DNA of 64,000 bases from a bacterium (GCA_018335295.1 JAGXKI010000008.1:635-64634); one strand, 5' to 3'. Positions 3,700-56,717 are shown, counted from the stretch's first letter. The notes: a model not told the origin generated them from the sequence alone. Translations and numbers: made by a program.

Positions 3700-3712
3700 T
3701 CTTTAGGCTAAG

Positions 3713-8078: not shown

Positions 8079-8128
8079 ACGAATGAGAAATTGCGAAATT
8101 TTTTTATTTTTGTTAAATTTCCAGTGGA

Positions 8129-8404: not shown

Positions 8405-8516
8405 CTCCTCTAAAGGATTGATTGAGTTTGAAAATAACTCTTTAGAGTCTCCAGGATAAAAGCGAACTCTATACACCTCCAATTTTCTCCGGGGATGAAA
8501 TGCTTCCTAGAGATAA

Positions 8517-9944: not shown

Positions 9945-9956
9945 GGCTTTATCTTC

Positions 9957-23208: not shown

Positions 23209-23270
23209 TATAACTACCTCCTTATTTCCTCATTTATTTATAAACGAATAGGATAAGGCTAAGATATTCA

Positions 23271-33028: not shown

Positions 33029-34420
33029 TCAGGAGGAGAGGATATCTCGGGTGTCGATATCGAGTCTTTTGATCATTTCGTTCAGAGTAGTGGGCTTGAC
33101 TCCTAGAAATCGGGAAGCCTTTTTTTGAACTCCGTTGGCCTTTTTTAAGGCATCAATGATCGCTTTCTTTTGGTAGTGCTTCATTTGTTCTTTGAGGGTC
33201 ATGTGAGCCGAGGCGGAGGTGGTATTTTCCTTTTCTTGGGGCGGGGCTAAGAAAGAGGGAGGAAGATTTTTTCGAGTAATGATTTTGGTCTTGGTTAAAA
33301 CCACGGCTCTTTCGATAAGATTTTCTAATTCTCTGATGTTTCCAGGCCAATCATAGTTTTCCAAAATTTCCATCACATCTTGGGATACTTCTTGGATTTC
33401 CTTGTTGTTTTCTTTGCTGTAGATGTTCAGAAAATGCTTAACTAAAAGAGGAATATCTTCTTTTCTATCCCTTAAAGGAGGAAGTTCAATTTTAATGACA
33501 TTCAACCGGTAGAACAGATCTTCCCGGAATTTATTCTGGTTGATGAGCTCTTCTAAATCAGCATTTGTGGCTGCGATAACCCGAACATCTACTTTTATGG
33601 TACTGGTTCCTCCGAGCCTCATAAATTCTCGGTCTTGCATGACTCTTAGAAGTTTGGCTTGAGTTTCCATGTTGAGAGTGGATATTTCGTCAAAGAAAAT
33701 AGTCCCCTTATCTGCGGCCTCAAACAATCCCTCTTTTTGCTGTACCGCCCCAGTGAAGGCTCCTTTGACGTGACCGAAAAGATGGCTTTCCAGTAAATCA
33801 GGGGGGAGGGAACCGCTGTTGACAACAATAAATGGATAATCCGAGCGGTTGCTGTTTTGGTGAACTGCTCTGGCGACCAGTTCCTTTCCAGTTCCACTTT
33901 CTCCTTGGATAAGAATGGTGCTTCGAGAGGAGGAGGTGGCTTTTATGGTTTCGAAAACATTGTTCATTAATTTGCTTTTGCCGATTATACTGTTAAAACT
34001 AAATTTCTTCTGGAGCTGACTTTTTAACCGGAGATTTTCTTCTTGAAGTTTCTTATGTTCAAGGGCTCTTTTAACCGTCATCAGCAGGTCTTCGTGTTTA
34101 AAAGGTTTCTGGATGTAATCATAAGCTCCTGTTTTCATAGCGGAAATAGCGGATTCCACCGAAGCATAGGCGGTAATGATGATGATCACGGCCGTAGGAT
34201 CCCTTTTTTTGATCTTTTTAAGGACTTGAAGGCCGTCCATTCCAGGCATGAGCAGGTCCAAAAGGATGAGGTCAAACGGTTGGGAGGAATGTTTTTTTAA
34301 AGCTTCCTCTCCCGTCGAGGATATTTCAAGTTCATATCCTTCAGAGGAGAGAAGATCTCCTAAAATTTCATGGATGATGGGTTCATCATCCACGATGTGA
34401 ATGATTCCTTTTTTACTCAT
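33029..34420 (-). CDS. NtrC-family sigma-54-dependent response regulator (REC + AAA+ + HTH); PilR-like by context
   Basis: DLILLDLLMPGMDG receiver, GESGTGKE, GAFTGA, C-terminal HTH. Confidence 0.85.
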   Translation of the reverse strand: MSKKGIIHIVDDEPIIHEILGDLLSSEGYELEISSTGEEALKKHSSQPFDLILLDLLMPGMDGLQVLKKIKKRDPTAVIIIITAYASVESAISAMKTGAYDYIQKPFKHEDLLMTVKRALEHKKLQEENLRLKSQLQKKFSFNSIIGKSKLMNNVFETIKATSSSRSTILIQGESGTGKELVARAVHQNSNRSDYPFIVVNSGSLPPDLLESHLFGHVKGAFTGAVQQKEGLFEAADKGTIFFDEISTLNMETQAKLLRVMQDREFMRLGGTSTIKVDVRVIAATNADLEELINQNKFREDLFYRLNVIKIELPPLRDRKEDIPLLVKHFLNIYSKENNKEIQEVSQDVMEILENYDWPGNIRELENLIERAVVLTKTKIITRKNLPPSFLAPPQEKENTTSASAHMTLKEQMKHYQKKAIIDALKKANGVQKKASRFLGVKPTTLNEMIKRLDIDTRDILSS

Positions 34421-34430
34421 TTTTTTTCTC

Positions 34431-37265
34431 TCATGAAGATTGGGTCATTTTCCTTTTATCCAAGTCCATGGGAATATAAATAGTAAAAAGGGAGCCTTTT
34501 CCTTCTTCGCTTTCCACACTCAAATGACCTTCATGTTCTTTGATGATGGCATAACTAATAGAAAGTCCTAGGCCTGTTCCTTTTCCTATGCCCTTGGTGG
34601 TAAAGAAAGGATCAAAGATATTGGGCAGATGTTGTTCTTTGATTCCTGTCCCCGTATCTTTGATCGTGACGATGGCTTGATTATCCGTGTTGGATAATTG
34701 GATTTTAAGGGTTCCTCCGTTAGGCATGGCGTCGATGGCATTAAGGATGATATTGATGAAGACTTGCTGGAGTCTTTCCCCTTGAGCCCATATGGAAGGA
34801 ATAGAAGGAAGTTCCAGTTCTAAGTTGATCTTCATGTTCTTCAGTTTATAATCAATCAGGGATAAGATCTCTTCAATATTTTCTTTGAGCTTCACTTGGT
34901 AAAAAGAGGATTCGGAAGGATTCCGGGCGAAATTAAGGAGATTTTTAACAATTTTTCCTACTCTCTCTGTTTGGTTTTCGATCTTGTCCAAGATTTGTGA
35001 ATGAGAATCATTGGTGAGTTTTTTCTGTAAAAGCTGTACGTAACTGGAGATACCCGTAAGAGGGGTGTTGATTTCATGAGCCACTCCCGCTGAAAGGAGT
35101 CCCACAGAGGCCAGCTTTTCTGAAGTGAGAAGCTGCTGTTGGAGAGAGAACTTTTCCGTGATATCTTCAAAGACGATGACTGTGCCATAAGGGTTCATCT
35201 GGTTATCCAACAACGGAGTTTTGGCAATATCAAAGATTTTTTTCTCTCCAGAAGGCATTTCCAGAGTCACTTCACTGAGCAAACGAAATCCTTTCTGGGT
35301 GTCTGGAGGAAAAAGGGCCGCATAATTCTCTTCTCCCAACACTTGAAGCAGTTTTTTATCCATAACCTCTTCTTTTTTATGAGAAAAAGTTTCTTCCATG
35401 ACCCGATTCCAGCCCATGATTTTTCCCGATTGGTCCAGTACAGCCACTCCCACAGTCAGACTTTCAATGATGTTTTCACTGTAGTCTTTCAACATTTCCA
35501 GTTCTCGAGCTCGACTCTGAGCCTGGTTATACAGATAAGCGTTTTCTAAGGCCAGTCCCACCGAGGAAGCGATGGTTTTGAGCAACTCCCAATCTTCACT
35601 GTTCAGGTAAGTGTTATCTGTCTTTTTCCCCATAGCCAAGCAGCCTACCATCTTATCTTCAACCTTTAATGCCAATAAATGATGAAATCCTCTGGAGGAG
35701 AGGTTTTTCAATTTATCTTTCAAGGTCCTTTTTTCAGAAAGGGAATCCGCGGAAATGAAATTCTCTTTTTTTAAATGGTGGTAAATTTGGGGATCAAAAG
35801 TGATTTGTTTCTCTGGAGAGGAAGAATTTCCCATGGATTTCAAGATGTAAAAGGAATCCTTGTTGTTTTCATCTGGGAGAAGAAGAGCGATGTATTGGAG
35901 CGATAGAGCATTGGAAATGAGATTGAGAAGGGATTGAGAAAGTTTTTGAAGGTTTCTCTCTTTATTGAGCTGTTCGCTGATGGAAAGAAGGGTCTTCCGG
36001 TAATGATAGCTTTTTTTGTATATGACCCTATCCAGAAGAGATTGGAAAAGATTTTTTAAAGGTGAAAAAAGAGTGGCTCCCAAAATAATGGCGAGAATGC
36101 CCAGGATGAGAGCATTGAGTCTATTTTCAGAGAAGATTTTTGTTTGTGAGCTGACGATAAAATAGACTATAGCGATCACCACATAGGAAGAGATGAGAGT
36201 GACGGCTTTTTTGAGTATAATTTCGAGATCAAAAAATTTATACCTGGAAATGGAATAAGCGAAAGTTAAAGGGATGAGAGCTTGGAGGATGACTGTAAAT
36301 TCAGCCCCCTTGGAGGGGACATTTCCTAAAAGAAAAGGAAGGATATAGATAAGAGTGAATGGGAGGATGGCAAAACAGAGGCCGTAGACGATGCCTTTCA
36401 GCTGCTTTTTAATGATAGGATTAGGAGATTTAAAGATTCCCATGACGAGAAGTCCCACTGTGAACAGGGAATAGAGGCCAAAATGAACCAGATCCAGTGT
36501 TTCAGAAGTTTTGTGGAGGTTTAATACCGTAAATTCATTAAGAGAGACAGTATGGAGGACCCCTTTGAAGGAAAGAAGAAGGAAGGCAGGGATGTATAAA
36601 AGGATAGAAGAGCGGAGTATGCTTTTTAAGATTTTTTTTCTCTTGGGAAAAGTGTTGAAAAAATGGAGCATCAAAGGTGGAAAAAACAGAAAAGCTATTT
36701 TATCCAGCCAGAAAAACAAAGAGTCCCAAACATCCAGTTGGCCGGTTGGAGAAAATGTATAAAAAGCAAAGAAAGTCACACAAAGAAGAAAAAAGAACCC
36801 ATAAGGAAGGAAAAAAGGTTTATCCGAGCTGAAGAAAACGATGAGCCCGATGGCCAGGGTGGTGATTCCCACTAAAGAAAGGAAAAAGTAAATAAGGTTA
36901 GTTCCCTTTTTCCGGAGATAAAATGAGGGGTGAGCCAGATTTCCTTCAAGGTTTCCTTCCCGAGCGATCTCGTAGGTGACCTTTTGGTTCAGTCCATCCG
37001 CTTCCCATAATTTTTTGGAGAGGTCAATTTTGTTCTTTATGGGAGTGTCGTTGATTGAATAAAGAATATCCCCTTTTTTGATTCCATGTAAATAAGCTGG
37101 ACTCCCTTCTTCTACTTTTACAGCCGTGAGGCCTTCCGGAGTTTTTTCCCAAATGACTCCGTCGGTGGGTTCTTTCCAGGTGGCTTTTCTGTATATATTC
37201 AATGCCCCCAGAGCGAACAACAGAAGTAAAGGCGGTATTACCAGGAGATAGATTTTTTTATTCAT
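34431..37265 (-). CDS. Sensor histidine kinase: TM + periplasmic PDZ + 7 TM helices + GAF + PAS + HisKA + HATPase_c (ORF extends to 37334; MNKK at 37265 with AAGGAA RBS is the likelier start)
   Basis: PDZ-like GSPAYLHGIKKGDIL; AHEINTPL H-box; GTGLGLS G-box. Confidence 0.8.
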   Translation of the reverse strand: MNKKIYLLVIPPLLLLFALGALNIYRKATWKEPTDGVIWEKTPEGLTAVKVEEGSPAYLHGIKKGDILYSINDTPIKNKIDLSKKLWEADGLNQKVTYEIAREGNLEGNLAHPSFYLRKKGTNLIYFFLSLVGITTLAIGLIVFFSSDKPFFLPYGFFFLLCVTFFAFYTFSPTGQLDVWDSLFFWLDKIAFLFFPPLMLHFFNTFPKRKKILKSILRSSILLYIPAFLLLSFKGVLHTVSLNEFTVLNLHKTSETLDLVHFGLYSLFTVGLLVMGIFKSPNPIIKKQLKGIVYGLCFAILPFTLIYILPFLLGNVPSKGAEFTVILQALIPLTFAYSISRYKFFDLEIILKKAVTLISSYVVIAIVYFIVSSQTKIFSENRLNALILGILAIILGATLFSPLKNLFQSLLDRVIYKKSYHYRKTLLSISEQLNKERNLQKLSQSLLNLISNALSLQYIALLLPDENNKDSFYILKSMGNSSSPEKQITFDPQIYHHLKKENFISADSLSEKRTLKDKLKNLSSRGFHHLLALKVEDKMVGCLAMGKKTDNTYLNSEDWELLKTIASSVGLALENAYLYNQAQSRARELEMLKDYSENIIESLTVGVAVLDQSGKIMGWNRVMEETFSHKKEEVMDKKLLQVLGEENYAALFPPDTQKGFRLLSEVTLEMPSGEKKIFDIAKTPLLDNQMNPYGTVIVFEDITEKFSLQQQLLTSEKLASVGLLSAGVAHEINTPLTGISSYVQLLQKKLTNDSHSQILDKIENQTERVGKIVKNLLNFARNPSESSFYQVKLKENIEEILSLIDYKLKNMKINLELELPSIPSIWAQGERLQQVFINIILNAIDAMPNGGTLKIQLSNTDNQAIVTIKDTGTGIKEQHLPNIFDPFFTTKGIGKGTGLGLSISYAIIKEHEGHLSVESEEGKGSLFTIYIPMDLDKRKMTQSS

Positions 37266-37350
37266 GTTCCTTGGTCGTGAACCGGAAAGTCCCAATTTTG
37301 ACTCAAAATCCAAAAAATTGAATCGCTCTGACAAAAAATATATGGGTCGT

Positions 37351-37629
37351 TCAATATAAAATGTGTTTTTCTTCGGACCTGATGGCCCATTTTATGTTGG
37401 ACTGGTTGAGAAATTTTTTCAGATCCTTGTTTTCCTTGAGACCTAACGGTTTGGTGTTCCGAGATAAAAAAGTACTCATATAATCATATTTCCCCTTTTT
37501 TACAGTCTGTGGAGCTCCTTCTTTGAGTTTACTCCATAAGGACCCAGACGAGTAACCCTTATGGATAGAGGACAAAATGAAGGCGGAAAGAAGAAACAGA
37601 AGAACCATCCCCACTTTTTTGTATCTCAT
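37351..37629 (-). CDS. Small secreted hypothetical protein (92 aa, signal peptide, C-terminus ...KHILY)
   Basis: ORF with N-terminal hydrophobic signal; 17 nt upstream of the kinase gene. Confidence 0.4.
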   Translation of the reverse strand: MRYKKVGMVLLFLLSAFILSSIHKGYSSGSLWSKLKEGAPQTVKKGKYDYMSTFLSRNTKPLGLKENKDLKKFLNQSNIKWAIRSEEKHILY

Positions 37630-37740: not shown

Positions 37741-37776
37741 GAGGAGGTCTTTTGTACTATTTTATCCAATTTGAAG

Positions 37777-38982
37777 ATGCCATACTATCGCTGTCGGTTA
37801 GCTGGGGAAAATGGACTGATTACATCCCAGTCTTTTTTTGCTCCCTCTTCTCAAGATTGTCAAAAATATTTTGAAGAGGAAGGGTATTGTGTTCTTTCTG
37901 TAAAAAAGGATTGGAAGAAAATAAAGCTAGGAACTTTTCCTTTTGAAAAGAAAATCAAAGATAAAGATTTTATTGCCTTCAATCAAGAATTCATAGCCCT
38001 TATAAAGGCCGGATATCCAATCCTGAAAAGCATCGGGATTATCATCAATCGAGTCGAGAATGTTCATCTCAAAGAGATTTTGATGAATGTAGAGAAAGAG
38101 ATTCGAGCGGGAAAGTCCCTTTCCGAAGCTTTTTCTCCGTATGAAAAGATGTTCTCCAAAGTTTATACCGCTTCTCTTATCGCCGGAGAACGGAGCGGAA
38201 ATCTTCCCAGCACTCTGAGCAGGTTCATCGGGTATTCCCGAAGAATTTCCCAGACTAAATCCAGGATTAAATCGGCCCTCACTTATCCCACCCTTCTTCT
38301 TATTTTTTCTTTATTTCTCATGGGGATACTGATTAACTTTGTTATTCCCCGCTTTTCTGGATTTTACGCTGATTTTGAAGCCCAGCTCCCCCTTATCACT
38401 CGGATACTTATGTCCTTTTCCTTGACAGTGAGAAATCACCTTGGGTATATACTGGGGGGTTTCCTTGTACTAATTTTGCTTTATTTTCAGTTAAAAAAGA
38501 GGAGTCATATGCGGGTTTATCTAGATCAGATGAAATTGAAAATTCCCTATGGAAAGGGCCTTTGGTTGGAGTCTTCGGTTTCCATTTTTTCAAGGACATT
38601 GGCCATCCTGTTGGGAGGAGGCATCTCTTTGCTCCAAGCAGTGGGAGTGGCTTCACAAGCGGTGCCCAATCAATATTTATCCAGGAGGATGGAAAATCTT
38701 CCCCCGGATATAAAAAACGGGGATAGTTTGTCGGCTTCCCTTCGAAAGATCGGTCTTTTTCCCCCTTTGGGATTGGATATGATTCGTATAGGGGAAACAT
38801 CAGCCAACCTTGAGGGGATGCTTGAAGAGGTAGCTGATATCTATGATGAACGGATACGGACCAAAGTGGAAACTTTTGTTTCTCTTATCGAACCTGTTAT
38901 CATAATACTGATGGGAATAGTGGTAGCGTTCATGCTGCTATCCGTGTATTTACCCATATTTAACCTGATAAGAGTGACCTGA
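37777..38982 (+). CDS. pilC: Type IV pilus platform protein PilC / GspF family (ORF track starts at TTG 37771; ATG 37777 preferred)
   Basis: Two T2SSF domains, 3 TM helices, AGYPILKSI / ERSGNL motifs. Confidence 0.85.
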   Translation: MPYYRCRLAGENGLITSQSFFAPSSQDCQKYFEEEGYCVLSVKKDWKKIKLGTFPFEKKIKDKDFIAFNQEFIALIKAGYPILKSIGIIINRVENVHLKEILMNVEKEIRAGKSLSEAFSPYEKMFSKVYTASLIAGERSGNLPSTLSRFIGYSRRISQTKSRIKSALTYPTLLLIFSLFLMGILINFVIPRFSGFYADFEAQLPLITRILMSFSLTVRNHLGYILGGFLVLILLYFQLKKRSHMRVYLDQMKLKIPYGKGLWLESSVSIFSRTLAILLGGGISLLQAVGVASQAVPNQYLSRRMENLPPDIKNGDSLSASLRKIGLFPPLGLDMIRIGETSANLEGMLEEVADIYDERIRTKVETFVSLIEPVIIILMGIVVAFMLLSVYLPIFNLIRVT

Positions 38983-40613
38983 TGAAAGACAAACTCAAAG
39001 AAAAGGAACAAAAGAAACAAAAAAACAGTCTGTCCGAAGAGGAAGAAACCCAACGTCTAGCCCGGAGGTATCAGGTTTCCACCATTGACCTTTCCTCATG
39101 TGCTTTGGATAGGGATTTGATTCAATCCTTTCCTGTTGATTTTCTTTACCGGTCTTGCTTCATTCCTGTTGAAGAAAATGAAGAGGGAATTAAAATCGCC
39201 ATTGCTGACCCCTCCGATATTGAAACCATCGATTCGATTGAATCTTTTAAGGGAAAGAAGGTTGAGGTGTGTGCGGCACCTCGTCAGGCCATTTATGAAG
39301 CTCTGCGGAAAAGTGAGACAGCGATACAGCTTCTCAGGGATGCCACCGAAGGGTATGTCATGAAGGTGGTGGATAAAGAAGGCACTGAAGAGGGAGAAGA
39401 TGCGATTTCGGTAGAAAAACTAGCTGATCAAGACGGCTCTATTATCAAACTGGTGAATTCCATCATTTTCACCGCTGTTCAAAAAAGAGCCAGCGATGTG
39501 CATATTGAATCCCGGGAAGAAGGGGTGATCATCAAATATCGGATTGACGGGGTTTTGAGTGAGGCTATGGAGCCGATCGATAAAAGATTCCATTCGGCCA
39601 TCATATCTCGGATCAAGGTGATGTCAGATCTGGATATAGCTGAGCGGAGAGTCCCTCAGGATGGACGGTGTCGTTTGAAAATCAAAGACAAGACCATAGA
39701 TTTTCGAATTTCCATCATGCCCGGGATCTATGGTGAAGATGCGGTGATTCGGGTCCTGGATAAAGAAATGATTACTGAGGCTATATCCGAATTGAGGTTG
39801 GATTTGTTGGGACTTTCTGAGGAACTTCTTTATAAATTCCGGAAGCATATCTTCCAACCCTATGGAATGGTGCTGGTCACCGGTCCCACAGGAAGCGGGA
39901 AAACCACTTCTCTTTACGCAGCTTTGACTGAAATCAAGTCTCCGGAAGATAAAATCATCACCATAGAGGATCCTGTGGAGTACCAAATCGACGGTATCAC
40001 CCAGGTCCCGGTGAATGAGAAAAAAGGGCTTACTTTTGCTCGAGGATTGAGGTCAATTTTACGTCATGATCCGGATAAAATCATGGTGGGAGAAATCAGG
40101 GATCCCGAAACAGCTCAGATCGCCATTCAGTCAGCTTTGACCGGCCATCTTGTGTTCACCACTGTCCATGCCAACAATGTCTTTGATGTCATCGGACGAT
40201 TCCTCCATATGAATGTAGATCCCTACAGTTTCATTTCATCTTTGAACGGCATCATGGCCCAAAGACTGGTCCGGGTCCTGTGTCCTTACTGCAAGAAATC
40301 AGTGAAGTATGAACCTTCTCAATTGAAAGAATCCGGGCTGAATCCTGAGACATTCCAGAATCAGGATTTTTATGAGCCTCAAGGATGTCCTCAGTGCCGG
40401 TTCACGGGTTTCCGGGGAAGAACCGCCATTGCGGAGCTGCTGGAGCTTTCCGATGAGATCAGAGAGATGATCGTGGATAAGAAACCCCTCTCTGAAGTGA
40501 AAAAAAGAGCCAAGGCTGAAGGAATGGTCTTTTTAAGAGAAGAAGGGATAAAAAAAGTGTCCCAAGGGCTTACCAGTCTTCGGGAATTGAATAAGGTGAC
40601 TTTTGTGGAGTAG
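38982..40613 (+). CDS. pilB: Type IV pilus assembly ATPase PilB / GspE family with N-terminal GspE_N domain and tetracysteine zinc site
   Basis: VTGPTGSGKTTS Walker A, Asp box, His box, CPYC...CPQC. Confidence 0.9.
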   Translation: MKDKLKEKEQKKQKNSLSEEEETQRLARRYQVSTIDLSSCALDRDLIQSFPVDFLYRSCFIPVEENEEGIKIAIADPSDIETIDSIESFKGKKVEVCAAPRQAIYEALRKSETAIQLLRDATEGYVMKVVDKEGTEEGEDAISVEKLADQDGSIIKLVNSIIFTAVQKRASDVHIESREEGVIIKYRIDGVLSEAMEPIDKRFHSAIISRIKVMSDLDIAERRVPQDGRCRLKIKDKTIDFRISIMPGIYGEDAVIRVLDKEMITEAISELRLDLLGLSEELLYKFRKHIFQPYGMVLVTGPTGSGKTTSLYAALTEIKSPEDKIITIEDPVEYQIDGITQVPVNEKKGLTFARGLRSILRHDPDKIMVGEIRDPETAQIAIQSALTGHLVFTTVHANNVFDVIGRFLHMNVDPYSFISSLNGIMAQRLVRVLCPYCKKSVKYEPSQLKESGLNPETFQNQDFYEPQGCPQCRFTGFRGRTAIAELLELSDEIREMIVDKKPLSEVKKRAKAEGMVFLREEGIKKVSQGLTSLRELNKVTFVE

Positions 40614-41547
40614 GAGGAAGAATTCTTTGATAAACAAAATAAAAAATTTCTTTATCCAACCCTCCTCTCTTCATTCCGCTTTCCAGTTTTCTTCTCAGTA
40701 CGGAGGAGGAATTCTTATATCTCCAAGAAATAGAGCTGTCAGGGAATGTTTTTTTGTCTCTCTAGGAAATGGTGAAATCATACGGCCTTCCTTTCATAAA
40801 AAAAACATCCTCAACCCCTCTCTTTTAGAAAAAAAGATGAAACCAGAAATCCAAAAGCTTCAGCTCGACGACCCAAGGGTGATTTTTCTTCTTCCGGATT
40901 TATCCCAAAAGGCTCTTGTTTTCACTTTGGATTCCTTTCCCCGGTCTCCTCAGGATAGAGAGCAAATATTGTGGTACCGAATCAAAAAACAAATCCCCCT
41001 GCTGCCTTCCGATGTTCGACTCTCCTATGATTGGTTTTTTTCTGGAGAAAAAATTAGAGTCCTTACTTCGGTAGCCCGAAAATTGGTTATAGAGGAATAT
41101 GAAAATTTTTTCCGAAAATTTCAATTGAGAGTGGGAATCGTGGGAGTTGTTTCCCTGAGTTTGCTCAGTCTTCTCAAAAAAGAAAAGAATTTTATACTTG
41201 CCAATATTGAACAGGACTCCTTCAGTTTGTTATCCACGGTCGATGGAAATCTGGTTCTCTATCGCCAAAAATCCCTTCCCTCTGTTCCTCTCCAGTCTCT
41301 CAATAAAAGTTTGGATGTTCTTGTCCAGGAGATAAAGAATACAGCCAACTATCTCGAAGATAGAGAAAAGAAAAAAATCCCAAACGTATGGATACGTTTG
41401 GGATGGGTGGAAAAGGAAGAAGAGGTGTTTCATCGGTTAAAGGAAGAGCTTCCTTTTTCGGTCAAGAGAATTGAAAATTCGATTCCCTATTCCATGAAGG
41501 GGAGAGAAAAAAGAGTCCTCTCTCCTTCCATAGGACAGTTCGGATGA
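40603..41547 (+). CDS. pilM: PilM-like (actin-like) type IV pilus assembly protein
   Basis: Size, position before a PilN-like gene, weak PilM-like segments; assignment mainly contextual. Confidence 0.5.
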   Translation: MWSRRKNSLINKIKNFFIQPSSLHSAFQFSSQYGGGILISPRNRAVRECFFVSLGNGEIIRPSFHKKNILNPSLLEKKMKPEIQKLQLDDPRVIFLLPDLSQKALVFTLDSFPRSPQDREQILWYRIKKQIPLLPSDVRLSYDWFFSGEKIRVLTSVARKLVIEEYENFFRKFQLRVGIVGVVSLSLLSLLKKEKNFILANIEQDSFSLLSTVDGNLVLYRQKSLPSVPLQSLNKSLDVLVQEIKNTANYLEDREKKKIPNVWIRLGWVEKEEEVFHRLKEELPFSVKRIENSIPYSMKGREKRVLSPSIGQFG

Positions 41548-42104
41548 ACCATCAGCAGCCTTTGAGAATAAACCTGGCAAGCAGACCTTTGAGAAATAGA
41601 CGATTGTTCTTCATGCTTTTAGCTGTAGGAGCATTGGGTATCCTCTTCCTGGCGGTTGTGAGTGGGAGTGCTTTCGTCTCTTATAAAAAGAAGAATGCAA
41701 ACCTGCATTCTTCTTTAATTCAGGTTCAGGAACAGATTGAGAAGAGCCAAAACACCCACAACCAATTATCCAGGAAAATCAAAAAGGTGGCTCAGAAGCA
41801 CCGGAAAAAGATTGACCGGCTGAATGAAATTATACATAAAAAAAGTTTTTCCTGGGTGGATTTTCTTTCTGCTTTGGAAAATTCTCTTCCCTCTTCCTGT
41901 TATATCGTTTCCCTCTCTCCGTCACAAAAAGGAGAATCCCAGTTAGAAGTGAGGTTTAGGGTGGTTTCTCCCCATTTGGATGAACTTTTGAAATTTATTG
42001 ACCGGATGAATGCCCAGAATTTCAAAAAAATCCGGGTTATAAGCGAATCCAAGAACGAAAAGGGAGATTTGATTTCAGAGATTTCGTTTACTTATGAATC
42101 CTAA
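41544..42104 (+). CDS. pilN: PilN-like bitopic pilus assembly protein
   Basis: N-terminal INLASRPLRNRR (cf. PilN INLLP motif), single TM, coiled coil. Confidence 0.6.
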   Translation: MNHQQPLRINLASRPLRNRRLFFMLLAVGALGILFLAVVSGSAFVSYKKKNANLHSSLIQVQEQIEKSQNTHNQLSRKIKKVAQKHRKKIDRLNEIIHKKSFSWVDFLSALENSLPSSCYIVSLSPSQKGESQLEVRFRVVSPHLDELLKFIDRMNAQNFKKIRVISESKNEKGDLISEISFTYES

Positions 42105-42660
42105 AGAAATGTTTAAATTTTTTGACCAGAAAGAGAGAAAAATATTAGGGGGGATGGGTCTTATTCTTTTCGCCCTGATCTTGTTCCATTTTTTCATTGC
42201 TTTGGGGGAGAAAAGAGCCTATCTTCATTCCAGGGAATTACTGGAAGTCAAAAAAAATAAACTGCAGAAGATGGAAAAGGAAAAGATTCAGTTAGAAAAG
42301 GAGTGGGAGCGATGGGTTCAGGCGCGGCAGGATATGAAAGAGTTGAAGGAAAATTATCTCTACACCTCCGAAGAAGGGGTAGAAATATTGAGGAAAGACC
42401 TCCAAAAAATTTTTAGAGGGTCATCGGTACAGATATCCCCATTGAGGTATGATTATCCAAAGTCAGAGGAGAAAAATATCCAGAGAATTCAAGTAAGCTT
42501 TGATGCGACGGGTTCTTATTTTTCTTTGAAAAAATTCATCCATGACATCGAGATATTCCCCAAGTTTTTGACCATAGAAAAAATTGATTTTATAGATATC
42601 AATCCGGAATCGGGGATTCTCAAATTAAATTTAGTGGTATCGGGATACTATGAAGACTAA
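42094..42660 (+). CDS. pilO: PilO-like bitopic pilus assembly protein
   Basis: Single TM + coiled coil + C-terminal domain; gene order. Confidence 0.5.
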   Translation: MNPKEMFKFFDQKERKILGGMGLILFALILFHFFIALGEKRAYLHSRELLEVKKNKLQKMEKEKIQLEKEWERWVQARQDMKELKENYLYTSEEGVEILRKDLQKIFRGSSVQISPLRYDYPKSEEKNIQRIQVSFDATGSYFSLKKFIHDIEIFPKFLTIEKIDFIDINPESGILKLNLVVSGYYED

Positions 42661-43147
42661 ATATTTTATCTTGGCCTTTTTATTTTTAAGTTTAAGTTTT
42701 ATGGGGGAAGGAAGTGAACAAGAAGAAAAGTCTGTAGACCGGGAAGGAAAAAAAATGGAGAAGCCCCCGCTGGTGAGGATAGATTTGTTGGATTGGAAAG
42801 AAGAAAAATTAAAGCCTCCGGCTCGAAACATATTTTCTTCCTCATTATCTTCATTTGAACCTTCTCACCCTGTTGAAAAAGAATCGATGACCCATCCTCC
42901 CGCTCAAGAAGAAAACGCCCCCAGCACTCCCTCCCCTTCCTTTATAAGGCTTCGTTATGTCGGGTGTGTCTTTTCAGGCGAAAAAATCGTGGGTCTTGTG
43001 ATTTTTGAAGGTGAAACGTTAGCGGTGGAAAAAGGAGACTCCCTAACTTCAAAGTTTCAGGTGAAGGAAATCACTCCCCAAAAAATAGTGGTGCAAGGTT
43101 CTGATTCCCATAAAAAGTCTTATCCTCTGGAAGGAGAGGAGAAATGA
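42650..43147 (+). CDS. pilP: PilP-like secreted/lipoprotein pilus assembly protein
   Basis: Signal peptide, Pro/Ser-rich linker, C-terminal beta domain; gene order before secretin. Confidence 0.4.
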   Translation: MKTKYFILAFLFLSLSFMGEGSEQEEKSVDREGKKMEKPPLVRIDLLDWKEEKLKPPARNIFSSSLSSFEPSHPVEKESMTHPPAQEENAPSTPSPSFIRLRYVGCVFSGEKIVGLVIFEGETLAVEKGDSLTSKFQVKEITPQKIVVQGSDSHKKSYPLEGEEK

Positions 43148-45288
43148 AAAAAATATCTGTTTTGATCGTAATAAGTTTACTGTTTTGGAGCTGTGCTACG
43201 TTCAGCCGGAACTATAAATTGGGAACAGAGGAAGCCGTGAATAAAAATTGGGATAAGGCTGTGGAATACTACCAGAAAGCTCACTTGAACCATCCTAAAA
43301 ATTCAGTCTACCGTCTCGCCCTGATCAGAGCTAAGATCTCAGCCAGTTACTCTCATCTTATGAAAGCCCGAAACCTCGCTTCTCAGGGAAAAAAGGAAGA
43401 GGCTGTCCAAGAATATGAAAAAGCCTTCTCTTATGATCCCTCAAACCGAAGGATTGCCCAGGAAATTAAAGAACTCACTGAGGAGAAGGAAAAAGAAGAA
43501 GAAAAAACTCTCAAGAGAGAGATTGAACCTCCGGTGAAGCTTCAAGTGAGGGAGGAAAAGTTAGATCTTAAATTTCATGAAGCCAGCCTCCGGTCTATCT
43601 TTATGGCTCTGGGCAAACATGCGGGAATCAACATCATGTTCGATCAGCAGTTTAAAGATATTCCCTTTACCATCAATCTGGAAGGAATGACCTTTGAACA
43701 AGCGATGCATTCGCTCTGTCTGGCATCCAAAAATTTCTACAGGGTGATCGATGCGAAAACTCTTATTGTGGTCCCTGACCAGCCTGTTAAGAGAGCCCAG
43801 TACGAGATTGAGGCCATCAAAACCTTCTATCTTTCCAACATCAAAGCTGAAGAGATTCAAGGTTCTCTTCAGCAGATGCTCCGGACTCAGTACAAAGCGC
43901 CCACTATCATTGTGGATAAAAACCTGAACTCCTTGACCATAAGAGATTCTCCTCAAGCGGTGGAATTGGCCCAAAAGGTTATCCGCCTTTGGGATAAGCC
44001 GAAAGGGGAAGTGGTTATCGATATGGAAATTATGGAGGTTTCCAGGAAAAGGATGAGAAAATTGGGACTGGACTTCAATCAATACATCGTGGGCATGAGA
44101 TATGGAGGAACTGGAGGTGGGGGAGAGACAGAAGAATCCGGATGGGTCAATATGAAAGATATCGATTTTTCCAAGGCAGAGAATTATCAATTTAGTCTTC
44201 CTTCTTCCCTGCTTCAATTTTTAGAGACCGATTCGGATACCAAGATTATTTCTCAGCCTCGGCTGCGGGGAATTGGAGGTGAGGAGATCGAATACATGGT
44301 GGGAGATCGAATCCCCATTCCCCGTACTACCTTCCAGCCGATGGCTGCCGGCGGGATCAGTCAGCAGCCGGTAACCTCCTTTCAGTTTGAGGATGTGGGG
44401 ATCAATGTGAAAATCACCCCCAGAATTCATAAGGAAAGGGAGGTAACCTTGGAATTGGAGATGGAGATCAATGCCCTAGGGGGCTCCGGTTATGCAGAAA
44501 TCCCTATCATTTCCTCAAGAGAAGTCAAGAATACCCTCCGTCTCCGGGATGGAGAAACCAATATCCTGGGTGGTTTGCTTAAAGAGGAAGAGAGAAAAAC
44601 CATGAAGGGAATTGCGGGCCTAAAAAGCATCCCTATTTTGGGAGATTTGTTTTCCAACACCGATCAGACTATTGAGCAGACCGATGTGATTCTCACCATT
44701 ACTCCCCGGATCATTCGGGAAATTCCTTTGACTGAGGAAGATTTAAAGCCTTTATGGGTGAATTTATCTGGAATCTCTCCCACCCAGAAAGGCACCCAGA
44801 AAGTGCCTGAAGAAGAACTTATGGAACGTATGCGGAGGGAAAGGAGGACCCCGGAAAAAGAAGAACAGGCTGGAGAAAATCAGGTGTTCCTTCATCCCTC
44901 TGACTTGAGTGTTCCTCAAGGTCGGGAATTTCGGGTTAACGTGAATCTTCGGAGCGCTAACGAAATCTCCAACCTCTCGGTCAATGTGAATTTCAACTCC
45001 CAAATACTGGAATTAAAGGAAGTGGTTCGAGGCACGGCTGTTCGGCAATTAGGAGAAAAGGCTCCGTTTTTGAGTAATATTGACAATTCTTCCGGGAGCT
45101 GCACCATCGGTTTTTCCAGTCCCGATGTCAGCCAGGGATATAAAGGAACCGGAAGGTTGGCCACGTTGGTATTTGTTTCAGAAGCAAAAGGAGAGACCGA
45201 AATTTCTTTATCCAGTGTCACAGCCAATGCTCCTTCTGGGGAACCGGTCTCTTTGAACAGAGGAACTTCCCAAGTTAAAGTCAAATAA
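43144..45288 (+). CDS. pilQ: Type IV pilus secretin PilQ with N-terminal TPR lipoprotein-like module and C-terminal cohesin-like extension
   Basis: Signal/lipobox-like LFWSC; TPR helices; Secretin_N (NolW) segments; secretin core ...GIAGLKSIPILGDLFS...VILTITPRII; about 190-aa C-terminal beta-sandwich-like tail. Confidence 0.85.
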   Translation: MKKISVLIVISLLFWSCATFSRNYKLGTEEAVNKNWDKAVEYYQKAHLNHPKNSVYRLALIRAKISASYSHLMKARNLASQGKKEEAVQEYEKAFSYDPSNRRIAQEIKELTEEKEKEEEKTLKREIEPPVKLQVREEKLDLKFHEASLRSIFMALGKHAGINIMFDQQFKDIPFTINLEGMTFEQAMHSLCLASKNFYRVIDAKTLIVVPDQPVKRAQYEIEAIKTFYLSNIKAEEIQGSLQQMLRTQYKAPTIIVDKNLNSLTIRDSPQAVELAQKVIRLWDKPKGEVVIDMEIMEVSRKRMRKLGLDFNQYIVGMRYGGTGGGGETEESGWVNMKDIDFSKAENYQFSLPSSLLQFLETDSDTKIISQPRLRGIGGEEIEYMVGDRIPIPRTTFQPMAAGGISQQPVTSFQFEDVGINVKITPRIHKEREVTLELEMEINALGGSGYAEIPIISSREVKNTLRLRDGETNILGGLLKEEERKTMKGIAGLKSIPILGDLFSNTDQTIEQTDVILTITPRIIREIPLTEEDLKPLWVNLSGISPTQKGTQKVPEEELMERMRRERRTPEKEEQAGENQVFLHPSDLSVPQGREFRVNVNLRSANEISNLSVNVNFNSQILELKEVVRGTAVRQLGEKAPFLSNIDNSSGSCTIGFSSPDVSQGYKGTGRLATLVFVSEAKGETEISLSSVTANAPSGEPVSLNRGTSQVKVK

Positions 45289-45495: not shown

Positions 45496-45561
45496 AAAAA
45501 AATTCTTGTTGGTAACCCCCGATTGACTATTGCGGGTGATTGGGCTAAAATTCACCAGACT

Positions 45562-45635
45562 GGCGGTGTAGCTCAGTCGGTTAGAGCATGCGGCTCATAT
45601 CCGCAGCGTCGGGGGTTCGATTCCCTCCACCGCCA
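45562..45635 (+). tRNA. tRNA with CAT anticodon: elongator tRNA-Met or tRNA-Ile2 (lysidine). Not initiator, since base pair 1:72 is G:C
   Basis: Cloverleaf folded by hand: 7-bp acceptor GGCGGTG/CACCGCC, D and T arms, anticodon loop CTCATAT; no encoded CCA. Confidence 0.85.
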
Positions 45636-45731
45636 TTTATTTTTGTTTTTGATGAGCACTGAGAAAATTTGCTCTTTTGCATTCGTCTTTCAGACATCCA
45701 GATATTTTAGAGGGGATAAAGAATTCCATAG

Positions 45732-49503: not shown

Positions 49504-50064
49504 ATGTATTCTTTAAAAAAGATTGCTGACAGAGAAAAGATTTTCGCAGGGTCTCCAAAGGGTTTTACTTTTATCGAGATTGTGGTGGTGGTGGCTATTA
49601 TAGGGATGATGGCCCTGGTCCTTTATCCCAGTATCAATAATTCTTTGGAAACCAGAAACCTGGAGAATACAGCTAGAGAAATCCTTTCCACCATGCAGAG
49701 AGCCAAGTTCCAGGCTGTGAAGACCAAGTTTAACCATAGAGTGAGGTTTTATCAGGACAACGATCACTGGGTTTATACAGTAGAGAGGGAAGAAACTCCC
49801 GATACCTGGACCCGGATGCCCGGGTTTATTCAAAAATCCATTCCATCTAAATTTAATGTGACATTGAATTTCCCTGATTCCTCCGGCTCCAGCGGGAAAA
49901 GCATCCAGTTTTCTTCGCTGGGTTTTATCGAAAATTATGATAAAGATAAAAACACACTGACGATTCAGAGCGACAAGCTTTCGGGATACAATCAAATGGA
50001 CCAAAGAGAAGTCCGGGTGTATGGAGGAGGCTCGGTGGATTATGTGAAGTCTGAGAGTGGATAA
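49504..50064 (+). CDS. Minor pilin/pseudopilin of FimT/GspH type (prepilin N-terminal methylation motif KG/FTFIE, 21-aa leader)
   Basis: GFTFIEIVVVVAIIG class III signal; GspH-like body. Confidence 0.7.
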   Translation: MYSLKKIADREKIFAGSPKGFTFIEIVVVVAIIGMMALVLYPSINNSLETRNLENTAREILSTMQRAKFQAVKTKFNHRVRFYQDNDHWVYTVEREETPDTWTRMPGFIQKSIPSKFNVTLNFPDSSGSSGKSIQFSSLGFIENYDKDKNTLTIQSDKLSGYNQMDQREVRVYGGGSVDYVKSESG

Positions 50065-50512
50065 AATGAGAAAGGATATGAAAACTTTTCACCTCACAAA
50101 AAAGAAAAGAGAAGGATTTACCTTGATTGAAGTGCTGGTGGGGATATTTTTAGTGGGAGCGGCTTTGATCGGTTTGGCTCAGATGTTTACTTACGGAGTT
50201 TTGAATAATTATCGGGCCGACAATCTCACCAACGCCACCTTTCTAGCTCAACAGCAGATCGACAATATTCGAAACCTCACCGGAGATGAAATCAGTGCCC
50301 TTTCTTCACCACTGGATGAGACACTGGATACCAACAAGGACGGGACCCCCGATTTCCGACGGATCACTCAGATCGAGTTTACTTCGAATGTTTGGAATAT
50401 CCGTGTAATGGTCTTTCCGGCTTCCCAATTGGGAGAGGATCTCAACTCTCTTACCAGCAACCCTATCCAGAATGAGGTCCGGGCCGATGTGAGCACCACC
50501 ATCGGGAGGTAA
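50057..50512 (+). CDS. Minor pilin PilV-like (prepilin motif G/FTLIEVLV)
   Basis: Class III signal peptide; small size. Confidence 0.7.
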   Translation: MDKMRKDMKTFHLTKKKREGFTLIEVLVGIFLVGAALIGLAQMFTYGVLNNYRADNLTNATFLAQQQIDNIRNLTGDEISALSSPLDETLDTNKDGTPDFRRITQIEFTSNVWNIRVMVFPASQLGEDLNSLTSNPIQNEVRADVSTTIGR

Positions 50513-50516
50513 ATAG

Positions 50517-51593
50517 ATGACACCTAGAAAGGGATTCACTCTTATTGAGCTTATCATCGGAAGCGCTCTTATGCTGGTCATCATTCTGGCAACTCTTTAT
50601 ATCTATTCGGAAAGCAACCAGGTTTCTGTGGACCAGCAGCAGTTGGCTGAGCTCCAGCAGGATGTCCGCTCCAGTATGTATTTTATCTCCCGGGATGTCC
50701 GGAATGCCGGAGTGGGGCTTCCCGGCGAGTTTTCAGGATATTTCCTGGAAGGTGAGGACAATGAAGACCAAGGAGGAGAAGTCACTCCGGACCGGTTGAA
50801 GGTTATAGGAAATATGGAGGACCCTTTGAACCTGAATATCGCCAACTACCAGGGCGCCGCAGCCAACCTTTCTCTGGATGATTACAGTTTAGAAAAATTT
50901 CCCTATCCTGACAGCTACTATGAGGATAAAGTGGTCCTCATCCTTCCCAATCCTGAATCGGCCTGCCGCAGCGGAGAGTTGAGACAGATCACCCACGTGA
51001 CCCATTCTCAAACAGGAACCAACGAGAAATTGAATTTTTCTCATGGGCTGGCCAAGGAATTCAATCCTCCTCAGGGTTTGAAGGGAAGTTGTCCCAGCTC
51101 CAACGATTATGATGGAGGACTGGTGGCATTCATCAACGTCAAAGAATACTGGCTGGATGTCACCGGGAGTTACTCCGGGTTGACTAAGGGTGAAAACGGG
51201 TACATCGGTGAGCCCGGGGTGCTTTATATGACTCATAACGGAGTTCACTATCCTCTAGCCAAGGATATCGAAAACCTTCAATTTCAATACAATGGGGATT
51301 TCGACAATGACGGAAGTCTGGATGGATTTGTGAACTGGCAGGAGACTTGGACGGGAGATTCGGTGATGGTGAGCCGGATCAAACAGGTCCGGATGTGGAT
51401 TCTGGGAAGAACCCCGGAGCGGTTTGTGAGCGTTTCGGGAAAACCTCCCGATGACCTTCATCTTTATAAAAGGCCGGCTGTGGCCAACACTCCGGAGGCT
51501 TCTCAGGATGATATGCACCGGCGGTTTCTTTTGGACTCCACAGTCACCATCCGGAATCTGTCTTTGAGCCTTTACAATCTGGGAACCCGATAA
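50517..51593 (+). CDS. Minor pilin PilW-like (MTPRKG/FTLIELIIG, 6-aa leader)
   Basis: Class III signal peptide, 358 aa. Confidence 0.7.
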   Translation: MTPRKGFTLIELIIGSALMLVIILATLYIYSESNQVSVDQQQLAELQQDVRSSMYFISRDVRNAGVGLPGEFSGYFLEGEDNEDQGGEVTPDRLKVIGNMEDPLNLNIANYQGAAANLSLDDYSLEKFPYPDSYYEDKVVLILPNPESACRSGELRQITHVTHSQTGTNEKLNFSHGLAKEFNPPQGLKGSCPSSNDYDGGLVAFINVKEYWLDVTGSYSGLTKGENGYIGEPGVLYMTHNGVHYPLAKDIENLQFQYNGDFDNDGSLDGFVNWQETWTGDSVMVSRIKQVRMWILGRTPERFVSVSGKPPDDLHLYKRPAVANTPEASQDDMHRRFLLDSTVTIRNLSLSLYNLGTR

Positions 51594-51594
51594 G

Positions 51595-52206
51595 ATGAAA
51601 GAATACAGTCAAAAGAGAAAACAAAGAAAAGGAGTAGCTCTGATCATTGTTATCGTAGTACTGGCTTTTCTCCTTTCGGTGGGTCTTATGCTCATCACCG
51701 TGACCAGTACAGGAAAGAAAATTTCCGGGAATGTCAGGGCTCAGGGGGAGGCCTTCAACGCGGCTGAGGCGGGGTTTGATACCGGATGGATTGCCGTCGA
51801 AGAATCTTTTGCCAACAATGAGTGGACCAGCTTTGAGGGGCATTATCTTACCCAGCCTACCGGGATTGACCTCCCGTATCATGAAAATTATTTTCGTAAA
51901 AAAACGGATATTCAGATTTTAAACATGCTGGATCCCGATGGAGACGGAACTCCCGATTATCAGAATGTAATTTTCTACAAACAACCTTACATCCAGGATG
52001 AAAACGGCAATCTGGACCCCCGCTACACATACACTGCCTTTTTGATCGATGATGAGGCCGGAGTTTTGGAGAGCGGGGGTTCTTCGGACCCCAGCGATGC
52101 CTTAATGGTGTGCATCGGAACTGCTGGGACCGGAGATGATATGAATACCGGTCGGTTAGAGATTGGATTAGCTGTGGAACTTCAGGGAGTCAGCCAGTCG
52201 GATTGA
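51595..52206 (+). CDS. PilX-like minor pilin / pilus assembly protein
   Basis: N-terminal hydrophobic GVALIIVIVVLAFLL; position between pilW and pilY1. Confidence 0.55.
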   Translation: MKEYSQKRKQRKGVALIIVIVVLAFLLSVGLMLITVTSTGKKISGNVRAQGEAFNAAEAGFDTGWIAVEESFANNEWTSFEGHYLTQPTGIDLPYHENYFRKKTDIQILNMLDPDGDGTPDYQNVIFYKQPYIQDENGNLDPRYTYTAFLIDDEAGVLESGGSSDPSDALMVCIGTAGTGDDMNTGRLEIGLAVELQGVSQSD

Positions 52207-55946: not shown

Positions 55947-56717
55947 TTAGGGGGATTTGTAAAGACTCAAGTAAGCGTGGATGATTCGTTCTCCCCATAA
56001 GAGGGCCACAAAGGCCGCCGGAGCGAGAAAAGTCCCGAAGGGAAGAGAGTACTGGAAGTTTTTCCTTTTAAAAAGAATCAACAAAAGGCCCACCAGAGCT
56101 CCTACAAAAGAAGCTAGAATCAAAGTGAAAAAGGCCATTTTCCATCCCAGATAAGCGCCTACCAGGAGCATCATAGTGACATCCCCCATCCCCATCCCTT
56201 CCTTTTTGCGCAATAGATAATAAGACCCATACACCAAAAAGAGAAATCCGGCCCCTACCGCTGCGCCCAGCAGTGATTGGGTGAACCCTAAGTCTTCACG
56301 GACCAGGGAATAGACCAGAGCCAAACCCAATCCAGGAAGAGTGAGCTCATCGGGGAGAACTTGATGGAAATAGTCAATAAACCCTAGAACAATCAATAAA
56401 CTGGCAAAAAGGCAGGAAGTAAAGAAATGAACTTTTCCTCCATAATAGAGGAAAAGGAGGACAAAACACAGAGGGGTGAGGATTTCCACAAGGGGGTAGG
56501 AGAACGGGATTTTGGCTCCGCAGCTCCGGCATTTTCCTTTCAACAGAAGATATGAGAAAATAGGAATGTTGTCATAGGGTTTTATTTTTTGACCACACTG
56601 GGGACAGGAAGAGGCGGGTTTGATGAGGCTTTTCCTTCGAGGAAGACGGTAAATCACCACATTGAGAAAGCTTCCCCAAACCAGACCGAATCCAATGATG
56701 GCGATTATCGTTTCCAT
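55947..56717 (-). CDS. pilD: Prepilin peptidase (A24 family) PilD
   Basis: CPQCGQKI...CRSCGAKI zinc motif, multiple TM helices, catalytic Asp region. Confidence 0.85.
   Translation of the reverse strand: METIIAIIGFGLVWGSFLNVVIYRLPRRKSLIKPASSCPQCGQKIKPYDNIPIFSYLLLKGKCRSCGAKIPFSYPLVEILTPLCFVLLFLYYGGKVHFFTSCLFASLLIVLGFIDYFHQVLPDELTLPGLGLALVYSLVREDLGFTQSLLGAAVGAGFLFLVYGSYYLLRKKEGMGMGDVTMMLLVGAYLGWKMAFFTLILASFVGALVGLLLILFKRKNFQYSLPFGTFLAPAAFVALLWGERIIHAYLSLYKSP

Follow-up and report, generated by a model that had tools for sequence, protein, structure and literature searches.

A putative lipoprotein secretin with a fused TPR module and a C-terminal cohesin domain in type IV pilus loci of Acidobacteriota

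In this study, we describe a PilQ-type secretin in which a predicted lipoprotein signal and a tetratricopeptide repeat (TPR) module precede the secretin domains and a cohesin domain follows them on the same polypeptide. It is encoded in a 64,000-nucleotide stretch of bacterial DNA (GCA_018335295.1, JAGXKI010000008.1:635-64634), the whole of which is called the window here, by an open reading frame (ORF) at 43144..45288 on the + strand that begins with ATG and specifies 714 amino acids (aa), exactly where an earlier reading made without database searches (the sequence-only reading) had put it. From the N- to the C-terminus, the parts of this protein (hereafter the query) are a signal peptide with lipobox Cys17, about three TPR motifs, a charged linker, an N0 domain, one N3 domain, the secretin core, a conserved EEDxKPLW motif, a hydrophilic tether and the cohesin. 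Judged by sequence comparison, this three-part architecture is the standard form of the secretin in at least two lineages of Acidobacteriota, the Aminicenantes and the Vicinamibacterales. Each component is known, as is the principle of a secretin that is itself a lipoprotein (liposecretin); what is new is the combination, the probable periplasmic setting of the cohesin and the breadth over two Acidobacteriota lineages. We propose, giving it roughly an even chance, that the protein is a self-piloting liposecretin in which the fused TPR module takes the place of a pilotin and a periplasmic crown of tethered cohesins binds a partner.

The identical protein has a database entry, as a 'hypothetical protein' from a metagenome-assembled genome, and this source, with nothing further, is what could be said for the idea that the three-part ORF arose artificially, by mis-assembly or by a read-through between separate genes. 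The comparative data lead us to reject that idea, which is exceedingly improbable: a single ORF of 705-730 aa is present in ~76 independent species-level genomes, hundreds of protein clusters come from independent studies, a second lineage carries the same form at ~30% identity, and the domains are under purifying selection. Among the 120 best homologue clusters (58-90% identity), Secretin and Cohesin matches occur together in 119 and TPR matches in 119; where these clusters are named, the names are Candidatus Aminicenantes and 'cohesin domain-containing protein' or 'general secretion pathway protein D'. With the full-length alignment as query against one-genome-per-species GTDB contigs, a relative was found to be encoded in 541 genomes. 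The best 80 of the 541 (53-64% identity) are mostly end-to-end matches, nearly all reaching residue 702 at least, and where named they are mostly Aminicenantes. Two loci stand out. In the Aminicenantes locus L068 (CAVYOD010000015.1), a 713-aa homologue at 8001-10139 has an intact lipobox and no pilB, pilC, pilM, pilN, pilO or pilP within 8 kb; the locus has either been rearranged or harbours a second, orphan copy of the gene. In L052 (JAUWNW010000052.1), the orthologous ORF at ~8001 ends after 306 aa and the tblastn matches run to residue 714; a frameshift, a pseudogene or an assembly error is likely.

The same layout extends to distant relatives. A search with the cohesin region alone against 1.84 billion representative sequences returned the query's own family and many scaffoldin-like proteins that have multiple cohesins; several further proteins, 700-850 aa long, have one cohesin, at the C-terminus. 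Four full-length proteins of the latter kind combine TPR, Secretin_N, Secretin and Cohesin matches, and the fragment P0214 has Secretin and Cohesin; these relatives come from Aminicenantes, candidate division B38 and an 'Acidobacteria bacterium', and are 29-43% identical to the query overall. The most divergent of them, P0283, belongs to a large family (3,623 matches at E <= 1e-20) whose named members are all Vicinamibacterales. Homologues that lack precomputed TPR or cohesin matches show both by eye, as in P0343. The Vicinamibacterales operon reads pilC-pilB-pilM-pilN-x-x-secretin-pilin, with PilM_2 and PilN matches in locus L081 (DASUKM010000047.1). A small gene for an SLT-domain lytic transglycosylase (3532-4203) lies directly upstream of pilC in L081, and a larger SLT+LysM protein is encoded further upstream; no transglycosylase occupies the position flanking pilC in the window. 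The small enzyme may remodel peptidoglycan specifically on behalf of the pilus machine. Thus, the survey of related genomes that had been suggested for this secretin finds the same TPR, secretin and cohesin layout recurring in both lineages, and the protein is unusual when it is set against the secretins of model organisms but not in the sense of rarity.

The body of the protein is that of a secretin. Pfam Secretin (PF00263) covers residues 360-525 at 122 bits, above the gathering threshold, and is preceded by periplasmic ring-building domains of the N0 and N3 types, in the form of an above-cutoff match to FecR_C (N0/STN-like fold) at residues 142-209 and a single copy of Secretin_N at residues 226-287 (41.8 bits). 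In PDB sequence alignments, the core aligns with the cryo-electron microscopy (cryo-EM) chains of GspD, PilQ, phage pIV and RcpA up to the last barrel strand, which is conserved (...VILTITPRIIRE) and ends at residue ~526. No AMIN domain was matched by Pfam in the secretin at E <= 0.1, and TPRs are found at the N-terminus instead; peptidoglycan-binding AMIN domains in that place are usual in PilQ, though not universal. The gene closes a pilC-B-M-N-O-P-Q operon whose members are read in one orientation, and its start shares 4 bases with the stop of the upstream pilP-like gene, an overlap typical of translationally coupled operon genes. Downstream follow tRNA-Met, tilS and an asnB-like ORF, and then four prepilin-type proteins, a PilY1-like protein and PilD. 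A position at the end of pilM-N-O-P-Q, together with pilB and pilC, minor pilins, PilY1 and PilD, is the context of a type IVa pilus PilQ. This order is well kept in the best 80 genomes: pilC-B-M-N-O-P-Q with a divergent pilS is found in nearly all loci where the flank suffices, pilS adjoins pilC in 51, tilS follows pilQ in 41, and minor pilins and PilY1 lie downstream in ~20.

We considered whether the protein could instead be the GspD secretin of a type II secretion system (T2SS), with extra domains that serve substrate recruitment and not pilus biogenesis. Its best NCBIfam score is indeed to the GspD model TIGR02517 (157 bits, against 128.7 for PilQ, TIGR02515), its best PDB sequence matches are T2SS secretins, and many homologues are labelled 'general secretion pathway protein D', including by JGI. 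However, both scores are far under their cutoffs (351.35 and 284.35), the protein has N0 and one Secretin_N rather than the N0-N1-N2-N3 set of GspD, and no gspC, gspL or gspM of a gsp operon was found among the neighbours, which have the pilM-N-O-P-Q order and PilW, PilX_N, PilY1 and PilS/R. PilD is present as well, though it is common to pili and T2SSs. A GspD role is thus very unlikely. Because of its gene context and its single N3 domain, and although the GspD model scores higher, the protein is a PilQ-type secretin of a type IVa-pilus-like machine, in agreement with the sequence-only reading, which had named it PilQ.

The model of the full-length protein (AlphaFold2, AF2; a monomer built on 30 homologues) has an overall predicted local distance difference test score (pLDDT) of 68 and a predicted template modelling score (pTM) of 0.31; this low overall confidence is attributable to the modelling of an oligomeric barrel with flexible linkers as a monomer. 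The modules themselves are better defined, with pLDDT values of 82-89 for the helices within residues 22-112, ~85 for N0 and ~78-93 for a beta-sandwich at 580-714, and they are separated by residues 115-128 and 539-576 at pLDDT <50. The helical TPR module at the front and the confident beta-sandwich at the back were the two features for which structure prediction had been proposed as a check, and neither was refuted.

At the N-terminus, a lipoprotein-like signal had been noticed before, and the alignments bear this out. Cys17 is invariant among 30 homologues, and every N-terminally complete orthologue in the 80 genomes has a cysteine at ~17-19 after a hydrophobic core, preceded by G, S or A. 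L-W-G-C and F-W-G-C are the commonest lipoboxes, the textbook forms LSGC, LAGC, LAAC and LGGC are also present, and homologues of ~30% identity carry the consensus-like AGC, AAC, SGC and TGC (ATGC). On this family-wide pattern, a type II (lipoprotein) signal peptide on the secretin itself is the clear reading of the sequence, despite a Trp at -2 in the query. The predicted signal is followed by a module for which two to three TPRs had been claimed and which has about three motifs by several measures. Pfam TPR_2 scores 33.7 bits (cutoff 27), with its best stretch at residues 70-101, and TPR_1 reaches 26.3 bits at residues 24-53, slightly below its cutoff of 27.8; AF2 places helices at 22-32, 36-49, 54-80, 84-97 and 102-112; and the N-terminal sequence profile retrieves consensus TPR proteins from the PDB at E 4.5e-31. 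The charged linker behind the module has 64% charged residues, and is 26-29 aa long in Aminicenantes and longer in distant homologues. Elsewhere in the window, a 721-aa protein (4342-6507) consists almost entirely of TPR repeats and adjoins RNase HII; it was considered as a separate pilotin and rejected, being without a signal peptide, and it is unrelated to the TPRs of the secretin as far as tested.

At the other end, 188 residues lie beyond the end of the secretin domain, in keeping with the extra region of about 190 aa that had been pointed out. At the equivalent of residue ~526, PilQ chains end (e.g. 6W6M, 569/571 residues), and GspD chains run on into the S-domain. Most of the extra region is a cohesin. 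Pfam Cohesin (PF00963) matches residues 589-698 at 44.5 bits (cutoff 24.1; E 2.3e-11), and the C-terminal 138 residues modelled alone reach a pLDDT of 94.5 and a pTM of 0.88. All 50 of the top 50 Foldseek matches in the PDB are cohesin modules, the best being 2XDH, a non-cellulosomal cohesin of Archaeoglobus fulgidus (E 1.3e-11, template modelling score 0.83, 16% identity), and the fold is the nine-stranded jelly-roll beta-sandwich of that family. A sequence profile of the C-terminus finds cohesins as its four best PDB matches, at E 0.045-0.1; matches this weak point to a divergent member of the family. The cohesin-like beta-sandwich that had been suspected from alternating strands is thus well founded.

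Conservation within the cohesin peaks at strands b5 and b6 and the b5-b6 loop (0.78-0.83). In cohesin-dockerin complexes, strands b5 and b6 belong to the dockerin-binding 8-3-6-5 sheet. A regular expression for dockerin-type calcium loops, run over the window, gave one match, inside the FG-GAP region of the PilY1-like protein, and Pfam gave no Dockerin_1 match among essentially all window genes scanned. Loops of the DxDxDGxxD type are also seen in three of the four minor pilins (50057-52206; DTNKDGTPD, DFDNDGSLD and DPDGDGTPD). As candidate dockerins, the loops of the minor pilins and of the PilY1-like protein were set aside, since we judged them to be generic integrin/FG-GAP-type calcium loops. 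The closest non-secretin relatives of the cohesin are multi-cohesin scaffoldin-like proteins, one with a dockerin and one with a sorting domain of the type IX secretion system (T9SS); where named, they are not from Acidobacteriota (Ca. Desantisbacteria), and nothing in them points to a cohesin-dockerin system in the bacteria studied here.

The way in which the cohesin is attached bears on where it resides. The tether (residues 542-578) is 46% charged, has a mean hydropathy of -1.8 and a pLDDT <50, and contains no hydrophobic or amphipathic membrane-crossing segment in the composition analysis. It measures 30-56 aa in Aminicenantes orthologues and ~150-170 aa, rich in Pro and Ala, in Vicinamibacterales; this range of length, from ~30 to ~170 residues, fits a leash. 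The chain leaves the barrel at the point where the S-domain of GspD starts, and that region is periplasmic, since it binds inner-leaflet lipoprotein pilotins (PMC12531336, PMC4453517). We therefore favour a cohesin in the periplasm, on the exit point of the chain, the charged tether with no crossing segment and its variation in length. The sequence-only reading had allowed for an 'extracellular or periplasmic' appendage; the position corresponding to the S-domain and the charged tether support the periplasmic side much better than the extracellular one.

A cohesin on the cell surface, where the pilus portal would anchor dockerin-bearing hydrolases or adhesins as a minimal cellulosome-like device, would accord with the extracellular action of the characterised cohesins, with structural neighbours that are all scaffoldin or surface-anchoring cohesins, and with the scaffoldin-like nature of the nearest non-secretin relatives noted above. 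Flow cytometry has in addition suggested extracellular C-termini for BfpB and PilQ (PMC4453517). However, the 16-strand monomer topology proposed in that study differs from the shared double-barrel secretin architecture of later cryo-EM (PMC12531336), and no later structural papers on the claim of an extracellular C-terminus were found in the literature searched. The last secretin strand of the query is homologous to the strand that precedes the periplasmic S-domain of GspD, the tether argues against a membrane crossing, the passage of 12-15 folded domains of 136 aa through the channel would be hard to square with the passage of a pilus, and no dockerin motif was found in the window. Surface display is thus quite unlikely in our estimation.

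The extra modules are not equally conserved. Across 76 complete orthologues, the mean pairwise identity is 0.72 for the secretin core (fixed at 172 aa), 0.66 for N3 (77-78 aa), 0.64 for N0 (72-74 aa), 0.55 for the TPR module (fixed at 95-97 aa), 0.50 for the cohesin (fixed at 134-138 aa) and 0.21 for the tether between secretin and cohesin (variable, 30-56 aa). By identity and fixed length in comparison with the tether, the TPR and cohesin modules are thus both constrained, as far as sequence can tell. The motif that directly follows the barrel, EEDxKPLW (IPLTEEDLKPLWVNL), has D533 and W538 in 76 of 77 sequences and P536 in 72, and homologues of ~30% identity retain the related motif T-x-[ED]-D-[LV]-x-x-[IL]-[WY].

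This motif lends some interest to a clamp in cis, in which the post-secretin motif or the cohesin, whether from its own protomer or from an adjacent one, would be held in the groove of the TPR module and the extra domains would be purely structural, with no recruiting role. TadD is a TPR lipoprotein that encircles RcpA as a ring and holds in its groove the final residues of that secretin (PMC10499894). In the query family, the nearly invariant EEDxKPLW stands at the S-domain start position and is kept at ~30% identity, TPR, motif and cohesin always co-occur, and both termini would be expected just below the outer membrane. Nevertheless, the AF2 monomer has no confident intramolecular contact, and a tether of up to ~170 residues would be needless for a fixed clamp. 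We regard a purely structural clamp as unlikely, but such a clamp and the partner-binding crown that we prefer may coexist.

According to our preferred proposal, the gene encodes the PilQ-type secretin of an Aminicenantes (Acidobacteriota) bacterium; signal peptidase II would cleave the precursor and Cys17 would then be lipidated. The ~95-aa TPR module, directly behind the lipid anchor, would be kept as a ring beneath the outer membrane, and the charged linker of ~28 aa would return from there down to N0. The secretin would in this way pilot itself, working as HxcQ and BfpB do among liposecretins and as the TPR pilotins PilF, PilW, Tgl and TadD do in trans for other systems; it is the combination of lipid anchor, TPR, linker and N0, matching these precedents, that leads us to this view. 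The last barrel strand would end on the periplasmic side, where T2SS secretins bear their pilotin-binding S-domain, and the EEDxKPLW motif, the flexible tether and the cohesin would emerge from the barrel there, leaving the cohesin mobile just beneath the outer membrane. A 12-15-mer would bear 12-15 such tethered cohesins in the periplasm, a crown that could dock a partner protein; since cohesins are protein-binding modules, docking is the default role. In where it sits and in being tethered, the cohesin is like the AMIN domains of classical PilQ, so that it may plausibly help to anchor or localise the machine.

Several observations weigh against this proposal. The lipobox of the query, F-W-S-C, is atypical in its Trp when compared with E. 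coli-type lipoboxes. The 'built-in pilotin' of the sequence-only reading stands as a functional analogy but not as homology: the TPR module scores 20.9 bits on TIGR02521 (PilF/PilW/Tgl), against a cutoff of 154; it has ~3 TPRs in ~95 aa, fused to a secretin, rather than the six of those pilotins; and PDB sequence and fold searches with it returned generic TPR proteins, with known pilotins absent from the best matches. By these comparisons the module is not a PilF/PilW/Tgl homologue, and the word pilotin is used here by analogy of function. In addition, the 64-kb window encodes neither a dockerin-like motif nor any other obvious partner for the cohesin, the AF2 monomer (pTM 0.31) has no confident contact among TPR, motif and cohesin, and C-terminal tags on the type IV pilus secretins BfpB and PilQ are reported to be reachable from the cell exterior (PMC4453517). 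An extended form of the proposal is that the periplasmic cohesins are a platform recruiting, for example, a peptidoglycan-anchoring or pilus-associated partner with a dockerin-like or new type of tag, and that TPR module and motif act in cis as a pair corresponding to pilotin and S-domain, the whole replacing both pilotin and AMIN; this form is possible but doubtful. If true, it would be the first cohesin-based assembly system in a Gram-negative periplasm and an Acidobacteriota-specific way of targeting and anchoring secretins.

Table 1. Parts of the secretin and features of the surrounding pilus locus, in coordinates of the window.
Feature	Coordinates	Strand	Residues, basis or remark
Predicted signal peptide and lipobox (...LLFWS-C17)	43144..43194	+	residues 1-17; conserved Cys
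TPR module, ~3 motifs and capping helix	43195..43479	+	residues 18-112; Pfam, AF2, profile
Charged linker 1	43480..43563	+	residues 113-140; composition, low pLDDT
N0 domain	43564..43779	+	residues ~141-212; Pfam FecR_C
Single N3-type domain	43813..44043	+	residues ~224-300; Pfam Secretin_N
Secretin core	44206..44721	+	residues 355-526; Pfam Secretin, PDB alignments
Conserved post-secretin motif IPLTEEDLKPLWVNL	44722..44766	+	residues 527-541; conservation
Hydrophilic tether	44767..44877	+	residues 542-578; composition, low pLDDT
C-terminal cohesin domain and stop codon	44878..45288	+	residues 579-714; Pfam, AF2, Foldseek
PilR-like sigma-54 response regulator	33029-34420	-	Pfam; divergent
PilS-like histidine kinase	34431-37334	-	Pfam; divergent
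pilC	37771-38982	+	Pfam T2SSF
pilB	38982-40613	+	Pfam T2SSE and MshEN
pilM-like	40603-41547	+	position in operon
pilN-like	41544-42104	+	position in operon
pilO-like	42094-42660	+	weak Pfam PilO match
pilP-like	42650-43147	+	position in operon
tRNA-Met (CAT)	45561-45636		between pilQ and tilS
Minor pilin set, four prepilin-type proteins	49504-52206	+	Pfam N_methyl, PilW, PilX_N
PilY1-like protein, 1200 aa	52255-55857	+	Pfam T4P_PilY1; FG-GAP repeats before PilY1 propeller
Prepilin peptidase PilD	55947..56717	-	Pfam A24_N_bact, Peptidase_A24

Further features of the window (Table 1) deserve mention in their own right. The PilS-like kinase is unusually elaborate, with an N-terminal PDZ domain, a seven-transmembrane (7TM) region, and GAF, PAS, HisKA and HATPase domains. 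Between pilC and pilS lies a 92-aa ORF (37351-37629, - strand) with an N-terminal hydrophobic segment and no Pfam match, which would head the divergent pilS-pilR unit. Of the 80 loci, 50 have a tblastn match to it, at 45-77% identity across the C-terminal 43-71 aa, and in 46 of these 50 the match lies in the corresponding place, just upstream of pilC. The ORF may encode a pilus component, accessory or regulatory, that is so far uncharacterised. At some distance, a cluster of redox proteins (21628-27617, - strand) includes 2Fe-2S thioredoxin-like, ferredoxin-type and glutamate-synthase-like proteins and a 1054-aa protein in which a Nuo51-type FMN/NADH module is joined to a pyridine-nucleotide-disulphide oxidoreductase; the cluster is reminiscent of an oxidoreductase complex, either electron-bifurcating or NADH-dependent.

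For type IV pili, it is still debated how secretins arrive at the outer membrane and become inserted in it, and what anchors them in the envelope. A secretin with its own lipidated TPR module would be a natural fusion experiment that supports the placement of TPR pilotins at the inner leaflet and in a 1:1 ratio with the secretin, and a cohesin on a secretin would carry cohesin biology from extracellular cellulosomes to the diderm envelope. Aminicenantes and Vicinamibacterales are abundant in sediments and soils; as the norm in these two lineages, the architecture would be environmentally widespread. The Vicinamibacteria have cultured members, and the architecture would therefore be experimentally tractable. 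The practical payoff is modest until the partner of the cohesin is found. The domain content of these proteins has been visible to machines yet uninterpreted, since annotation pipelines already label some homologues 'cohesin domain-containing protein'. In the literature searched, we found no description of a secretin with a cohesin or of a natural TPR-secretin fusion, and no account in such detail of the pilus machinery that Aminicenantes or Acidobacteria possess; the term 'fused' in PMC4311626 refers to FLAG tags and not to natural TPR-secretin fusions.

Compared with the PilQ proteins of P. aeruginosa, M. xanthus and V. cholerae (TIGR02515), the protein shares the secretin domain, both N0 and N3, the place at the end of pilM-N-O-P-Q and the accompanying minor pilins, PilY1, PilD and PilS/R. 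It differs from them in having no AMIN domain, in its predicted lipoprotein signal and TPR front, and in 188 extra C-terminal residues that include the cohesin; the matched PilQ chains of V. cholerae and P. aeruginosa stop at the last barrel strand, whereas the query continues. The closest precedents for its N-terminus are the liposecretins HxcQ (T2SS of P. aeruginosa) and BfpB (type IVb pilus of enteropathogenic E. coli), which likewise have a lipobox cysteine on the secretin itself and a segment bridging the outer membrane to N0, and which share the N0-N3-secretin layout with neither N1/N2 nor a classical S-domain in the accounts of PMC12531336 and of Viarre 2009 as cited in PMC12475490. HxcQ reaches the outer membrane by means of its own lipid anchor and is pilotin-free, according to Viarre 2009 as cited in PMC12475490 and PMC4311626. 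BfpB, itself also a lipoprotein, is of N0-N3-secretin type and has no S-domain; in it, an N-terminal 'LG domain' spans the distance from the lipidated Cys in the outer membrane to N0 (PMC12531336). In contrast to this extended helix-plus-strands domain and to the linker of HxcQ, the bridge of the query is a folded TPR module, and neither HxcQ nor BfpB has the C-terminal cohesin found here.

The pilotins PilF, PilW and Tgl of type IVa pili and TadD of the Tad pilus are inner-leaflet TPR lipoproteins required by their secretins (PMC10653833, PMC10499894), and they share with the query a lipoprotein signal followed by TPRs and the dedication to the secretin of a type IV filament. Unlike these pilotins, which stand alone, measure ~250 aa and have five or six TPRs (six being described for PilF/PilW/Tgl, PMC10653833), the query has ~3 TPRs in ~95 aa, carries them in cis and finds no specific match among them. 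Like other PF00963 cohesins, and 2XDH especially, the C-terminal domain is a nine-stranded jelly-roll beta-sandwich that scores above the Pfam gathering cutoff, but its sequence identity to them is 13-22%, and it is attached to the outer-membrane channel of a diderm, probably on the periplasmic side. As a C-terminal extension that would come off the last barrel strand on that side, it finds its counterparts in the S-domains of GspD and InvG and in the tail of RcpA, which mediate protein contacts with a ring of lipoproteins (PMC12531336, PMC10499894); the TadD ring, for instance, surrounds RcpA and binds its C-terminal tail (PMC10499894). Whereas those extensions are short helical segments or peptides, that of the query consists of a short motif, a long disordered tether and an autonomous beta-sandwich of 136 aa.

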